In this document: piece by piece, positions 752 to 61,137 of the stretch | Layout: each line of letters begins with the position of its first letter | Numbering within the stretch: position 1 is the first letter of the stretch | Assembly: GCA_052034405.1 (NCBI GenBank) | Contig: JBPOIO010000020.1 | Coordinates: 9,699-73,698, forward strand | DNA: 64,000 nucleotides | Direction: 5' to 3' | Source of the DNA: Candidatus Magasanikiibacteriota bacterium | Lineage (GTDB): Bacteria > Patescibacteriota > Patescibacteriia > Magasanikbacterales > UBA922 | Program-made: the position numbers and the translations under genes | The notes under the pieces: generated by a model | What the model was told of the DNA's origin: nothing | The model's database searches: none | The model's input: only the letters and a program-made list of their open reading frames with translations

Positions 752-790
752 AAAAAAATACCCTCGCAATAAGCGAGGGTATTTTTTTAT
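752..790. terminator. Bidirectional rho-independent terminator between convergent genes
   Basis: TACCCTCGC-AATAA-GCGAGGGTA perfect 9-bp stem flanked by an A-run and a T-run. Confidence 0.65.
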
Positions 791-1074
791 GAGGCTTTGT
801 GTGGAATGACGTTGACGAATTTTGTTTTTTTCATTGTTCCGTCAAATCGTGTACGTTTGCGGCTTGTAAATTTTACAATACCAGCAACGATGGCGAAGAG
901 TGTATCATCTTTTCCTTGGCGGACATTTTTTCCACCATGGATTGGAGTACCGCGTTGGCGGATCAAAATTGTTCCGCTTTTGACGCTTTGTCCGTCACCG
1001 ACTTTTGTTCCGAGATATTTTGGCTTGGAATCTCGTCCCAAGTGGGTGGAACCACCCGCTTTTTTGTGTGCCAT
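787..1074 (-). CDS. rpmA: 50S ribosomal protein L27
   Basis: [29 protein letters not shown] is the canonical L27 N-terminus. The ORF extends 23 codons further upstream (to 1143), so a cleavable N-terminal extension cannot be excluded. No rplU lies upstream. Confidence 0.8.
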
Positions 1075-9004: not shown

Positions 9005-10077
9005 GCGTAAAGCAAAAGAAAAAAGTACTTATTTGTATGTCTGGCGGCGTCGATTCTTCGGTGGCTGCGCTTTTGCTCGTGCAAGCAGGCTACGAGGTGA
9101 CGGGGGCCTATATGAAGCAGTGGAGTGACTCCAAGGGGCTCTCTGGTGTGTGTAGTTGGAAAGACGATCGTCGCGACGCACTTCGCGTGGCAGCTCATCT
9201 GGCAATTCCACTTTTGACACTCGATTTTGAAAAAGAATATCGAAAATGGGTGGTGAAATACATGTTTGACGAATACCGTCGTGGACGAACTCCAAATCCA
9301 GATGTGATGTGCAACAAATATGTAAAATTTGGTTTTTGGATGGAAAAGGCGCGTGAGCTTGGATTTGATTATCTTGCGACTGGTCACTATGCACAAGTGC
9401 AAAAAGTTGGTCGAGTGGTCAAACTGCTCGAAGCAAAAGATACAGAAAAAGATCAAACATATTTTTTGCATCAACTCGGTCAAGAACAATTATCGCATAC
9501 ACTTTTTCCAATTGGCCATTTGAAAAAAACAGAGGTTCGTAGGCTGGCCAAGAAATATAAACTTCCGACTGCCGAGCGTGCTGAAAGTATGGGCATTTGT
9601 TTCATTGGCGAAGTACCAATGAAAGAGTTTTTACAGCAAAAGATTAAGCCCAAAAAAGGCAAAATTCGAAATACGAGTGGAGATGAAATAGGGGAGCACG
9701 AGGGCCTAGCTTTTTATACCATTGGTCAGCGTCATGGATTTTCGCAATCAGGTGGTACAGAGCCTTTGTTTGTGGTGGCAAAAAACATGAAGAAAAATGA
9801 GTTGATTGTCGGAAATGAAGATGATCCGGCGCTGTATAAAAAGGAAATTGTCCTAGAAAATATACATTTTGTGAGTGGACAGGCTCCAAAATTTCCGCTA
9901 CAATGCCAAGTACGAATGCGACATCGTCAAGCTTTTCAAAAGGTGATTGTTACAAAAGGAAAGAAGTCAAAAACTGTTATTCTTGCATTTCAAAAAGCAC
10001 AAAAAGCTCTTACCCCAGGACAATTTGCTGTTTTGTATAAAAATGCTGAGTGTTTGGGTGGTGGGGTGATTGAATAA
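9001..10077 (+). CDS. mnmA: tRNA-specific 2-thiouridylase MnmA
   Basis: PP-loop VLICMSGGVDSSVAALLL, catalytic Cys motifs, and a conserved C-terminal beta-barrel. Confidence 0.9.
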   Translation: MSVKQKKKVLICMSGGVDSSVAALLLVQAGYEVTGAYMKQWSDSKGLSGVCSWKDDRRDALRVAAHLAIPLLTLDFEKEYRKWVVKYMFDEYRRGRTPNPDVMCNKYVKFGFWMEKARELGFDYLATGHYAQVQKVGRVVKLLEAKDTEKDQTYFLHQLGQEQLSHTLFPIGHLKKTEVRRLAKKYKLPTAERAESMGICFIGEVPMKEFLQQKIKPKKGKIRNTSGDEIGEHEGLAFYTIGQRHGFSQSGGTEPLFVVAKNMKKNELIVGNEDDPALYKKEIVLENIHFVSGQAPKFPLQCQVRMRHRQAFQKVIVTKGKKSKTVILAFQKAQKALTPGQFAVLYKNAECLGGGVIE

Positions 10078-43247: not shown

Positions 43248-44147
43248 ATGTACGCTCTTTTTCCTTTACTTCTTATCTTTTGTTCTTTTGCCGCGATTAT
43301 TTTTTTGATTGTAAAAAAATTTCCACAACTAACATTGCTTGATGTAGAAAGTATTCCAGAAGTAAAAGAAGAAAAGAAAAAAGATGAGTTTTTGAAAAAA
43401 CGTGCAGAAAAAAAGATCCAAGAAAAAAAAGAAAAAAAGAAAGTGAAGTGGCAACCACTTTTGGATTTTTCAGAGCATCTCCAATCTGGATTTCGCAGTT
43501 TTGTGGGGACTATTGAAAAAAAAGTTTTTCATATTAACTTTGCAAAAAATCGTGAAAAAAAATTGGAAGAGGGAATTACCCCAGAACAAGAGATTGCACT
43601 TCTTGTACACGAAGCTGAAAATGCTCGACATGCTGGAAATTTGGATCAGGCTGAAAAGAAATATATTGAAGTTATTCGTTTGGATCCAAAATATATTGAT
43701 GCCTATCGGGGTCTTGCCGAGGTATATATGGGACTTGGTCAAAAGAAAGAAGCCGAAGAAACCTATCAATTTTTGCATCATTTGCTTCCAAATGACGATA
43801 TGGTTTGTATACGTCTTGCAGAGTTGGCAGAAGAAGAGGGGAAAACGACCACAGCGATTCAATATTATGAGAAATCTTTGCTTCTTAATGACTCTATTGC
43901 GAGCCGTTTTGCGCACCTAGCGGGCCTTTTGGAGGGGGAAAAACAGTACCCAGCTGCACTCGAGGCCATGGAGCAATCTGTGGAGCTAGAACCCCAAAAT
44001 CCAAAATATCTTGACAATCTTATAGAACTTGCTATAATTGTGAGCGATAAAGAACTTGCCGAAGAGACCTACCAAAAGCTTCGCCTGGTAAACCCAGACA
44101 ATCACAAGCTTCCTCTCTTCAAAGACAAGATTCAGGCCCTAGGATAG
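43248..44147 (+). CDS. Membrane-anchored TPR-repeat protein
   Basis: N-terminal TM helix, lysine/glutamate-rich linker, and several TPR units. Confidence 0.55.
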   Translation: MYALFPLLLIFCSFAAIIFLIVKKFPQLTLLDVESIPEVKEEKKKDEFLKKRAEKKIQEKKEKKKVKWQPLLDFSEHLQSGFRSFVGTIEKKVFHINFAKNREKKLEEGITPEQEIALLVHEAENARHAGNLDQAEKKYIEVIRLDPKYIDAYRGLAEVYMGLGQKKEAEETYQFLHHLLPNDDMVCIRLAELAEEEGKTTTAIQYYEKSLLLNDSIASRFAHLAGLLEGEKQYPAALEAMEQSVELEPQNPKYLDNLIELAIIVSDKELAEETYQKLRLVNPDNHKLPLFKDKIQALG

Positions 44148-44164
44148 GGGAAAATATCCACCAT

Positions 44165-44239
44165 GCCGAGATAGCTCAGCGGTAGAGCAGCTGTTTTGTA
44201 AACAGCGGGTCGCAGGTTCAAATCCTGTTCTCGGCTCCA
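44165..44239 (+). tRNA. tRNA-Thr (anticodon UGU), CCA encoded
   Basis: Manual cloverleaf: acceptor GCCGAGA/TCTCGGC, anticodon arm GCTGT-TTTGTAA-ACAGC, T-loop TTCAAAT. Confidence 0.85.
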
Positions 44240-44300: not shown

Positions 44301-44912
44301 ATGATTACTCTTCAAAAAGAACAATTACCTCAGATTTTAGATCTTTACAATCAAGGACAGAGTGTTCGTGAAATTTCTGAAAAGTTCGATGTTTCTATTG
44401 ATGCAATGTTTTATTTTTTTCGTAAATATAAAATAGTAAGACGAAATGCCTCTGATAGAAATAAAGCTTTCTTTGAAAGAAAACAATTAAGTTTTTGTAT
44501 AAAAGAAAAACTTTCTTTGGAAGAAGAAAAATTAAAAGTTGCAGGTATAATGTTGTATTGGGGAGAAGGTTCGCAGTGGTCAGGAGAGAAGATTGTTGAT
44601 TTTGCAAATAGCAAACCAGAAATGATAAAAATATTTCTTCAATTTTTGCGAGATGTTTGTGGCATTGATGAAAGTAAGCTGCGTGTTTATGTATATGCTT
44701 ATGAAGATCAAGATCTGAAAAAGATAATGAATTTTTGGTCAAAGTTAACTCACATTCCATTAAAAAATTTTTCTAAGCCTTATATTCGAAAAGATTTTAA
44801 GGTTGAGAAGAGTGGAAAAATGGAATATGGACTTGTTCATATTCGATACTACGATAAAAAACTATTGCTTTTGATAAAGCAGTGGATTCAACAGTACGCT
44901 CAACAATATTGA
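44301..44912 (+). CDS. LAGLIDADG-like homing endonuclease candidate with an N-terminal HTH
   Basis: VAGIMLYWGEGSQ resembles a degenerate single LAGLIDADG motif. N-terminal helix-turn-helix. Lies immediately 5' of the intron-containing tRNA-Tyr; its stop is 1 nt from the tRNA 5' end. Confidence 0.4.
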   Translation: MITLQKEQLPQILDLYNQGQSVREISEKFDVSIDAMFYFFRKYKIVRRNASDRNKAFFERKQLSFCIKEKLSLEEEKLKVAGIMLYWGEGSQWSGEKIVDFANSKPEMIKIFLQFLRDVCGIDESKLRVYVYAYEDQDLKKIMNFWSKLTHIPLKNFSKPYIRKDFKVEKSGKMEYGLVHIRYYDKKLLLLIKQWIQQYAQQY

Positions 44913-44913
44913 T

Positions 44914-45203
44914 GGGTCGGTTCCAGAGCGGTCAAATGGGGCAGACTGTAAAAATGCAGCCCTTGAGGGAAACTTCGAGGTAAACTTTTCGGGATAACGG
45001 TGAAGGCTAAGTCCGTAGGCGGATATGCGAACACCGTGGGAACCCCAATATTTATTGGGGGCACCGTAGAGACTAGATACCGAAATACCTAATACTAAAT
45101 AAAATTGGTAATGGTAAAGATATAGTCCACGCCATAGAGAAATCTAGGGATAAGTGAAATCTGCTGGCTTACGCCTTCGCATGTTCGAATCATGCCCGGC
45201 CCA
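44914..45203 (+). tRNA. tRNA-Tyr (anticodon GUA), interrupted by a group I intron; exons 44914-44949 and 45157-45203
   Basis: The joined exons are colinear with E. coli tRNA-Tyr: GGGTCGG TT CCAG AGCGGTCAAA TGGG GCAGA CUGU|AAA TCTGC, long variable arm TGGCTTACGCCTTC, T-arm GCATG TTCGAAT CATGC, acceptor CCGGCCC, discriminator A. Confidence 0.75.
44950..45156 (+). ncRNA. Group I self-splicing intron (~207 nt) in the tRNA-Tyr anticodon loop, between positions 35 and 36
   Basis: P1 is exon CUGU paired with intron GCAG, with a U.G pair at the splice site. R element GTAGAGACTAGA and S element AAGATATAGTCC form P7 (GACTA/TAGTC). The intron ends in G. Confidence 0.7.
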
Positions 45204-45205
45204 CA

Positions 45206-45238
45206 AAAAACTCTCCATATCGGAGAGCTTTTTTATTT
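45206..45238. terminator. Bidirectional rho-independent terminator
   Basis: CTCTCC-ATAT-CGGAGAG flanked by A6 and T6. Confidence 0.6.
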
Positions 45239-45245
45239 TCAATTT

Positions 45246-45707
45246 TTAGAGTGTTTTCAAATCTGCAATAACCTGGTCCACATGATCAGCAGGTTTTACT
45301 ATTTCGTAGTGCCGTATTATTTTACCTTTTTCGTCAATGAGAAATGAGTCGCGTTGTATTCCCATATATTTTCGACCATACAGAGATTTTTCTCCCCACA
45401 CTCCATATTTTTCAACCACTTTTTTTTCTGTATCTGCAAGCAGGGGAAAGTTGAGCCCAAATTTCTCGGCAAATTTTTGGTGTTTTTTGACATCGTCACA
45501 ACTGACACCAAGTACTTGCACTCCAAATTTTTTGAGTTCATTGAGGCGATCACGAAAACTACAGGCTTCGGTGGTGCATCCTGGTGTGTCATCTTTGGGG
45601 TAAAAATAGAGCAAGACTTTTTTGCCAAGATAGTCTTTGAGTGCCTGTTTTTTGTTGCTTTGATCAAGAAGTGAAAATGCGGGGGCTTTTTTATTGAGAA
45701 GATCCAT
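45246..45707 (-). CDS. bcp: Peroxiredoxin, Bcp type
   Basis: PKDDTPGCTTEACSFRD peroxidatic Cys motif. Start taken at MDLLNKKAP. Confidence 0.8.
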   Translation of the reverse strand: MDLLNKKAPAFSLLDQSNKKQALKDYLGKKVLLYFYPKDDTPGCTTEACSFRDRLNELKKFGVQVLGVSCDDVKKHQKFAEKFGLNFPLLADTEKKVVEKYGVWGEKSLYGRKYMGIQRDSFLIDEKGKIIRHYEIVKPADHVDQVIADLKTL

Positions 45708-45835
45708 AAAAAAAATTAAACGTGAGTATATTTTTATTGTAACTGAATTTGTACTTATCCACAAGGGGCTCTTTTTTTTGCAATACGTGTTATACTAAAT
45801 ATAATTCCTTTGTCTTTATTTTTAACCTTTTCTCT

Positions 45836-46072
45836 ATGTGGAAAGGATGTATCGGTCACAAGATAAGTGGCCTTCTCGTAGTCGTAGGAGCCCTCAATTG
45901 GGGACTCGTTGGAGCATTTGAGTGGAATCTCGTAAATGCCCTTTTGGGACAATGGGCTATGGTAGAACGTATTGTGTACGTTTTGGTGGGGCTTGCTGCG
46001 ATTATGATGATCGTAGGATGCCGATGCAAACAATGCAAAGCTTGCTGCAGTACTGATGCAAAAAAAATGTAG
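45836..46072 (+). CDS. DUF378-like small membrane protein
   Basis: GALNWGLVG...RIVYVLVGLAA, two TM helices. Start taken at the internal ATG. Confidence 0.45.
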   Translation: MWKGCIGHKISGLLVVVGALNWGLVGAFEWNLVNALLGQWAMVERIVYVLVGLAAIMMIVGCRCKQCKACCSTDAKKM

Positions 46073-46180: not shown

Positions 46181-46256
46181 GCTGCCATAGCTCAGTTGGT
46201 AGAGCGCGGCCATGGTAAGGCCGAGGTCTCCAGTTCAATCCTGGATGGCAGCTCCA
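46181..46256 (+). tRNA. tRNA-Thr (anticodon GGU), CCA encoded
   Basis: Cloverleaf: acceptor GCTGCCA/TGGCAGC, anticodon arm CGGCC-ATGGTAA-GGCCG. Confidence 0.85.
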
Positions 46257-61041: not shown

Positions 61042-61112
61042 GCCTCCTTGGTTCAGTGGTAGAACGACGGTATCGTAAACCGTATGCGCCAGTTCGATTC
61101 TGGCAGGAGGCT
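61042..61112 (+). tRNA. tRNA-Thr (anticodon CGU), CCA not encoded
   Basis: Cloverleaf: acceptor GCCTCCT/AGGAGGC, anticodon arm ACGGT-ATCGTAA-ACCGT, T-arm GCCAG-TTCGATT-CTGGC. Confidence 0.75.
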
Positions 61113-61137
61113 CAAGAATATGTTATACTTATAACAT

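Follow-up and report, generated by a model that had tools for sequence, protein, structure and literature searches.

The 64,000-nucleotide stretch analysed here (the window; positions 9,699 to 73,698 of contig JBPOIO010000020.1, assembly GCA_052034405.1, Candidatus Magasanikiibacteriota bacterium) contains a tRNA-Tyr gene that is interrupted within its anticodon. On the evidence of the nucleotide sequence, the locus is an intact group I intron in tRNA-Tyr, inserted between positions 35 and 36. The reading that we favour, with a probability of about 0.92, is that of a functional tRNA-Tyr(GUA), split between U35 and A36 by a group I intron of 207 nt that splices itself and has no open reading frame (ORF), in a host that is probably a Magasanikbacteria-like member of the Patescibacteria (candidate phyla radiation, CPR). 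By homology the intron belongs to an intron class published in 2026 from Patescibacteria, and the published cases do not include the gene described here. The anticodon itself is split by the intron, so that tyrosine decoding would require splicing. The gene is laid out as follows, in coordinates of the window.

44914-44949, + strand: 5' exon of tRNA-Tyr(GUA), 36 nt, called by ARAGORN and ending in CUGU (last letters ...GCAGACUGU); it holds the acceptor, the D arm, the 5' side of the anticodon stem (44941-44945) and C32-U35, with U35 last.
44950-45156, + strand: group I intron, 207 nt, without an ORF, starting AAAAAUGCAGCC and ending ...GGGAUAAGUG (...AAGUG); recognised by RF00028, covariation and fold.
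45157-45203, + strand: 3' exon of tRNA-Tyr, 47 nt, called by ARAGORN, with first letters AAAUCUGC and last letters ...CCCGGCCCA; it holds A36, A37, A38, the 3' side of the anticodon stem (45160-45164), the long variable arm, the T arm, the acceptor and the discriminator A, and does not encode CCA.

The original prediction had joined 44914-44949 to 45157-45203 as a type II tRNA-Tyr(GUA), and this assignment holds. ARAGORN calls the joined exons an 83-nt class II tRNA-Tyr(gta) with a long variable arm, and its structure of the spliced 83-mer is a cloverleaf with the GUA anticodon, the long variable arm, G1-C72 and A73. The spliced exons share 82-88% identity with 73 tRNA-Tyr(GUA) genes on related contigs that are uninterrupted and run through the position of the junction with a continuous GACUGUAAAUCU. 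A tRNA search with intron detection, suggested as a check, recovers the split gene from the genomic stretch when ARAGORN is run in its intron mode ('actgt-Intron-aaatc', 207-nt intron), but misses it when ARAGORN is run by default; default ARAGORN and Rfam at gathering thresholds reported only three tRNA-Thr genes in the 64-kb window. Annotation tools that are blind to group I introns would make such a genome look as if it had no tRNA-Tyr, and a tRNA-Tyr that is seemingly missing would distort completeness estimates for Patescibacteria.

The DNA of the window alone would permit a shift of the splice site by 1-3 nt, because the intron and the 3' exon both start with A's. A split at 35/36 is the only one that places U before the 5' splice site and G at the end of the intron, and in homologues with G, C or U as the first letter of the intron (our loci L032, L029, L086 and others) only 35/36 restores CUGUAAA. 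Through these homologous sequences the 35/36 splice site is unambiguous, and the insertion point first proposed is upheld by them and by the split that ARAGORN draws. The window intron lies directly after CUGU, between positions 35 and 36 of a tRNA with a GUN anticodon.

The intervening sequence had been predicted to carry a U.G pair at the 5' splice site, R and S core elements, a P7 helix and a terminal G, and all of these are present at exact coordinates. Its group I identity is borne out by a match to the Rfam model RF00028, by homology to a published tRNA-Tyr intron and by covariation across 21 sequences. The RF00028 (Intron_gpI) match, sought because that search had been proposed as a check, covers 44939-45149 and the full model (1-253); it is significant by E value (9.3e-11 locally, 1.5e-8 for the whole window), but its 46.1 bits lie under the gathering score of 50, and it surfaces only under E-value thresholds. 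Folded by itself, the window sequence adopts at minimum free energy the helices listed below (-71.1 kcal/mol, z = -3.84 against shuffles). In this list a slash within a sequence marks the 5' splice site.

44946-44959, + strand: P1 hairpin; CUGU/A (44946-44950) pairs with UGCAG (44955-44959), loop AAAA.
44961-44980, + strand: P2 hairpin, CCUUGAGG with CUUCGAGG, GAAA loop; compensatory changes in all eight of 8 pairs.
44987-44992 with 45080-45085, + strand: P3, enclosing P4, P5 and P6; compensatory changes in 5 of 6 pairs.
44997-45002 with 45032-45037, + strand: P4, inside P3.
45006-45007 with 45027-45028, + strand: P5, inside P3.
45039-45046 with 45058-45065, + strand: P6, inside P3.
45067-45078: core element GUAGAGACUAGA.
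45071-45075 with 45123-45127, + strand: P7 pseudoknot, GACUA with UAGUC, enclosing the 3' side of P3 and P8; invariant in 21 of 21 sequences.
45086-45089 with 45113-45116, + strand: P8; compensatory changes in 3 of 4 pairs.
45117-45128: core element AAGAUAUAGUCC.
45132-45138 with 45143-45149, + strand: P9 hairpin, GAAA loop; compensatory changes in 5 of 6 counted pairs.
45128-45130 with 45154-45156, + strand: CAC/GUG pairing (here the slash separates the two strands), within the 3' domain 45128-45156.

Homologues were collected by three routes. A pattern made of J8/7-P7 and the 3' junction (GATATAGTCCACGCC N{12,40} GAAATC) was searched in GTDB contigs, one genome per species, and gave 31 loci, ten of which are tRNA-Tyr genes with a homologous intron; the other 21 were rejected as chance matches within protein-coding DNA of unrelated bacteria. 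Contigs with homologues of ORF203, the gene immediately upstream of the window's tRNA-Tyr, added four loci, of which L034 and L035 are near-duplicates, leaving three distinct. Finally, 80 metagenome loci with ORF203 homologues yielded five intron-bearing tRNA-Tyr genes, four of them of the window's intron lineage. The alignment (n = 21) comprises the window intron, 17 homologous tRNA-Tyr introns and three introns published by Nakagawa et al. (mSystems 2026; PMC13011429, Table S3), namely those of Tyr GCA_016699995.1, Asn GCA_030583765.1 and Asp GCA_023898525.1. The window intron is closest to those of L032 and L033 (87-89% identity) and is 68-80% identical to the other Tyr introns; its identity is 72.7% to the published Tyr intron, over 205 aligned positions, and 59.8% and 68.3% to the published Asn and Asp introns, respectively. 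The intron had been described as near the minimal size, and 207 nt is indeed small, but it is ordinary for this lineage, in which Tyr introns measure 187-214 nt.

Unguided folding of the alignment with RNAalifold returned the anticodon stem stacked on P1, followed by P2, P3, P4, P5, P6, P8 and P9, with compensatory changes in 33 of the 51 predicted pairs. P1 carries the U35.G wobble at the 5' splice site and is stacked on the anticodon stem; its four exon pairs are invariant in all 21 sequences, whereas the fifth covaries (AU 11, CG 4, GC 3, GU 2, UA 1). P4-P6 are paired in 94-100% across the alignment, and the terminal G of the intron (45156) is invariant in 21 of 21. When the full structure is taken together with the P7 pseudoknot, 97.8% of cells form standard pairs, compared with 85.7% for the shuffles and 32-40% after a slide of partners by 1-3 columns; both sides have changed in 33 of 56 pairs, and any of these measures was reached by none of 500 shuffles. 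Since P7 is invariant, what speaks for it is conservation and not covariation.

The ten GTDB loci are labelled Doudnabacteria, Magasanikbacteria, Parcubacteria, Saccharibacteria, 'Patescibacteria group' and, in one case (L027), Gammaproteobacteria. Thus Patescibacteria-type labels are borne by nine of the ten and by most named ORF203 homologues, one of the latter being labelled Bacteroidales; the Gammaproteobacteria and Bacteroidales labels are probably binning or labelling errors. The L027 locus (CAZXML010000001.1, uncultured Gammaproteobacteria) reads tRNA-Thr / ORF203 / intron-tRNA-Tyr / tRNA-Thr / tRNA-Trp and is near-identical to L016, which comes from a 'Patescibacteria group' metagenome-assembled genome.

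The split gene appears to be the last member of a small transcription unit, whose other elements are given here.

44011-44038, + strand: promoter-like site of sigma-70 type, TTGACA-16-TATAAT, 12/12 consensus match with a TG extension, its function judged from that match; it falls in the last 140 nt of the gene for a TPR protein (43248-44147), a little upstream of tRNA-Thr(UGU).
44165-44239, + strand: tRNA-Thr(UGU), first gene of the putative unit (ARAGORN; Rfam 72.6 bits).
44301-44912, + strand: ORF203, 203 amino acids, with an N-terminal helix-turn-helix (HTH) followed by a LAGLIDADG-like fold at the C-terminus; adjacent to the intron and no part of it.
45211-45236, + strand: hairpin resembling an intrinsic terminator, CUCUCC-AUAUC-GGAGAG and then a T run, 7 nt past tRNA-Tyr.

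The pre-tRNA is probably transcribed from about 44011-44038 as tRNA-Thr(UGU) - ORF203 - tRNA-Tyr, stopping at 45211-45236. For the window intron we infer self-splicing by the standard group I pathway. One continuous helix would be formed in the precursor by the anticodon stem (44941-44945 with 45160-45164) and P1, and in it exon C32-U35 would pair with the internal guide GCAG and so yield the U35.G wobble. [quoted passage not shown] Ligation of the exons would rebuild the anticodon loop CUGUAAA and the GUA anticodon. The 3' exon is probably held in place by the anticodon stem, without an apparent P10 helix.

The three tRNA-Thr genes of the window lie at 44165-44239, 46181-46256 and 61042-61113, with anticodons UGU, GGU and CGU, and the first two bracket tRNA-Tyr, matching the conserved Thr-Tyr-Thr-Trp cluster of relatives. 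A peroxiredoxin gene (45246-45764, - strand) and an ORF (45749-46072, + strand) stand between tRNA-Tyr and tRNA-Thr(GGU), unlike in L013 and L016, where tRNA-Thr(GGU) follows directly after tRNA-Tyr. Elsewhere in the window, a weak Rfam Leu_leader match at 754-851 (- strand; 31 bits where the gathering score is 50, E 0.02) is probably due to chance.

ORF203 belongs to a family of more than 500 homologues of about 200 amino acids, for which the only annotation is the N-terminal HTH. An AlphaFold2 model built from 85 sequences (pLDDT, predicted local distance difference test, 94.8) has the LAGLIDADG alpha-beta fold as a predicted structure; helix 73-89 closes with the motif ...VAGIMLYWGEGS, in which E89-G90 do not vary among the 85 sequences. 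Sequence and profile searches of Pfam, NCBIfam and PDB recovered the N-terminal HTH only and no LAGLIDADG sequence family; a Foldseek search of the model against PDB gave nothing useful, and no relatives of ORF203 were found in viral contigs. Among our numbered loci, homologues occur in L002, L004, L005, L013, L015, L016, L027 and L032-L117.

What characterises the family is its position. The stop codon of ORF203 lies 1 nt before the 5' end of tRNA-Tyr, and over the 80 metagenome loci the median distance is 4 nt; genes of the family end 0-14 nt before a tRNA 5' end or overlap it. In 23 of the 80 the frame has no stop before the tRNA and runs about 13 codons into tRNA-Tyr (L045, L060, L061, L065, L068, L070, L093, L096, L099 and L049 are among these), typically stopping at the UAA of U35-A36-A37 in the anticodon loop, so that cleavage of such transcripts by RNase P would leave an mRNA without a stop codon. 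The flanked gene is tRNA-Tyr for 71 of the 80 homologues (66 intronless, 5 intron-bearing), tRNA-Thr(GGU) for two and an intron-containing tRNA for one; paralogues of 30-33% identity flank tRNA-Trp(CCA) (five) and tRNA-Thr(GGU) (one). At the intron-containing loci L017, L024 and L029, tRNA-Thr is directly followed by tRNA-Tyr, without ORF203. Because the flanked tRNA-Tyr is mostly intronless and some intron loci lack the ORF, the family is tied to tRNA 5' ends and not to the intron. At L079 (838-900) the tRNA-Tyr-like gene after an ORF203 homologue consists of its 3' part only (...GGUUGGCUACGGGGGUGCAAAUCCCUCCCUACCCACCA), a piece that a rearrangement at the ORF/tRNA boundary may have left behind.

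Some points weigh against a functional, self-splicing intron. The RF00028 score is 3.9 bits under the curated gathering score and significant by E value only; with AAAA as the P1 loop, no P10 pairing to the 3' exon can be seen; and although the split gene is the only tRNA-Tyr that ARAGORN finds, this count covers the 64-kb window, and a second, uninterrupted copy may lie elsewhere in the genome. The low score and such a second copy would suit a decayed relic that no longer splices, with a tRNA-Tyr pseudogene whose work is done by another copy. We regard this as very improbable: the core elements are without exception intact and agree fully with the family consensus, each helix is paired in the window sequence, the exons form a clean tRNA-Tyr, and the gene stands in a conserved Thr-Tyr-Thr tRNA cluster, as it does in relatives. 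Still less credible is an error of boundary or identity, by which the gene would encode another tRNA with an intron two bases upstream, for example tRNA-Ser(uga) with an intron at 33/34. ARAGORN does give 'tRNA-Ser(tga) i(35,...)' for L013, L017, L024, L029, L032, L038, L042 and L050, and Nakagawa et al. noted an equal two-base-shift misannotation for Asn and Asp (PMC13011429). However, only under 35/36 do all 21 sequences have U.G at the 5' splice site and G at the 3' terminus of the intron, the match of the exons to uninterrupted tRNA-Tyr genes (82-88%) speaks for Tyr, and the window's own gene is called Tyr(gta) by ARAGORN.

A dependence of the intron on ORF203, for its splicing (as a maturase) or for its spread (as a homing endonuclease of the intron, though one encoded outside it, in collaborative homing), has somewhat more in its favour but is still improbable. 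LAGLIDADG proteins can act as maturases, and free-standing endonucleases can mobilise ORF-less introns, as in the case of F-CphI and psbA. ORF203 stops 1 nt short of the tRNA, its fold is LAGLIDADG-like, and in 7 of the 10 genome loci with the intron a homologue immediately precedes tRNA-Tyr. The idea of ORF203 as the intron's own endonuclease or maturase is nevertheless weakened, because most homologues flank an intronless tRNA-Tyr (66 of 71 tRNA-Tyr-adjacent ones in the metagenome loci) and the three intron loci L017, L024 and L029 are without ORF203; its paralogues, moreover, flank tRNA-Trp and tRNA-Thr genes. A typical LAGLIDADG site is 18-22 bp, and the intron site, 36 nt inside the tRNA, lies past such a site centred on the ORF insertion point. 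Furthermore, related 35/36 introns splice in vitro without protein, as assayed for the Asn intron of GCA_016700035.1 and the Asp intron of GCA_001029755.1 (PMC13011429). A functional tRNA-Tyr(GUA) with a predicted self-splicing intron thus remains our preferred reading.

ORF203 may itself be a free-standing homing endonuclease, for which it is a candidate, or a domesticated WhiA-like DNA binder. A wider and tentative proposal, which we think has the odds against it, is that the family of more than 500 proteins consists of unannotated free-standing homing endonucleases with an HTH and a single LAGLIDADG domain, which would target the 5' edge of Tyr, Trp and Thr tRNA genes in Patescibacteria, use the promoter of the tRNA operon, and use tRNA processing to make the mRNA 3' end, with the intron spreading by co-conversion. 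Spread of the intron by co-conversion with ORF203 homing is conceivable because the intron is only 36 bp from the ORF insertion point, and ORF203 may in this way carry the nearby intron along. This tRNA-flanking family of LAGLIDADG-like genes is the lead most worth following, and may be more novel than the intron.

Free-standing homing endonuclease genes are known from the tRNA cluster of phage T4 (SegB) and from beside psbA of cyanophages (F-CphI). These genes lie beside conserved targets, psbA being itself intron-containing, and ORF203 likewise lies in the spacer of a tRNA cluster; like them, it is a small gene with an endonuclease fold that is polymorphic in its presence or absence between relatives. 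It differs from them in having a LAGLIDADG-like and not a GIY-YIG fold, in residing in a cellular and not a phage genome, and in being uncorrelated with the intron.

In the older literature, bacterial tRNA group I introns are those of tRNA-Leu, tRNA-fMet, tRNA-Ile and tRNA-Arg, all of subgroup IC3. The 2020 preprint by Williams widened the four classical tRNA/intron settings to 21 (bioRxiv 10.1101/2020.01.27.920355). Nakagawa et al. reported 333 intron-containing tRNA genes in 4,934 complete genomes, the published size range of bacterial tRNA introns being 184-894 nt; 28 of these introns lie at 35/36, 19 of them in Patescibacteria, and one is a tRNA-Tyr(GUA) 35/36 group I intron, in Candidatus Doudnabacteria GCA_016699995.1 (PMC13011429, Table 1, Table S3). 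The statement in the original prediction that a Tyr host and the 35/36 site are unusual suited the older literature but is now outdated. Beside this one published case, our searches found 17 further tRNA-Tyr loci for a recently described class, and the picture published in 2026 is unchanged by the window intron.

The Doudnabacteria intron has the same host tRNA and insertion site as that of the window, in a host of another Patescibacteria class. Its P1 region (CUGU/AAAAAUGCAGC) and its core blocks GGGAUAACGGUGAA, ACCGUGGGAAC, CCGUAGAGACUAGAUACCG and AAGAUAUAGUCCACGCC are identical to those of the window, and it has the same tail (...GGAUAA(A)GUG/AAAUC, the slash here marking the 3' splice site), whereas sequence and length are different in P2, P5, P6 and P8 (207 nt in the window, 192 nt in Doudnabacteria). 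Like the window intron, the published Asn and Asp 35/36 introns of Patescibacteria are inserted after C32-U33-G34-U35 and have the GCAG guide as well as the U.G wobble. Those of Asn GCA_030583765.1 and Asp GCA_023898525.1 belong to the window's compact sequence lineage and are alignable throughout, although their host tRNAs differ, whereas the assayed introns of Asn GCA_016700035.1 and Asp GCA_001029755.1 are of other sequence lineages, the former with an extra domain between the 3' side of P3 and P8, unlike the window's lineage. One compact lineage is thus present in tRNA-Tyr, tRNA-Asn and tRNA-Asp, all of which share the C32-U33-G34-U35 read by the GCAG guide, and this sharing fits a spread of the intron between tRNAs guided by P1 pairing.

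A metagenome contig (L042, 734-1029) has a tRNA-Tyr with a different and longer group I intron at 35/36 (...GGUUCAGAGACUU...GAUGAGAUAGUCC...), which is similar to the Asn-type introns in Nakagawa et al. (PMC13011429). Since this intron is of a second lineage, tRNA-Tyr has been colonised by at least two intron lineages. At L005 (6879-7139, - strand) and L103 (940-1210, + strand) ARAGORN reports 'tRNA-Arg(gcg)' genes with introns of about 190 nt, the one in L103 directly following an ORF203 homologue. The same ARAGORN label has been reported for tRNA-Thr(GGU) genes with divergent group I introns at 36/37 (PMC13011429), and the two calls are probably further examples of these.

As to subgroup, no Patescibacteria tRNA intron was placed in IC, and most 35/36 introns were placed in IA (PMC13011429). 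The window intron is without the P7.1/P7.2-type insert that IA1-labelled Asn introns carry. The classical IC3 introns (Anabaena/Nostoc tRNA-Leu at 34/35, Azoarcus tRNA-Ile at 36/37, cyanobacterial tRNA-fMet at 33/34) differ from it in position and host tRNA, but they too are compact ORF-less ribozymes in the anticodon loop, spliced after U, with a GNRA loop on P2, and their J6/7-P7 and J8/7 consensus (GUAGAGACUA..., AAGAUAUAGUCC) is nearly that of the window. In the 3' domain, the window intron has a single short P9 hairpin directly after P7, whereas IC3-labelled examples have a GUCCAGACCACAA... tail. Viral contigs of IMG/VR (L118-L121, 60-485 kb) contain intron-containing tRNA genes, called by ARAGORN Leu(taa), Gln(ttg) and two Ile(tat), with group I cores (GGGGAUAUCGGUGAAA...CCGUAGAGACUAGAUACC...GAAGAUAUAGUCCA) nearly identical to that of the window intron; L119 and L120 have a GUCCAGACCACAAAC tail that resembles the IC3-labelled examples. 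The phage tRNA-Leu and tRNA-Ile introns have the GGGAUAUCGGUGAA ... CCGUAGAGACUAGAUACC core in common with the window, and the P3-P8 core of the window's intron lineage is nearly identical to that of phage tRNA-Leu and tRNA-Ile introns with an IC3-type 3' tail.

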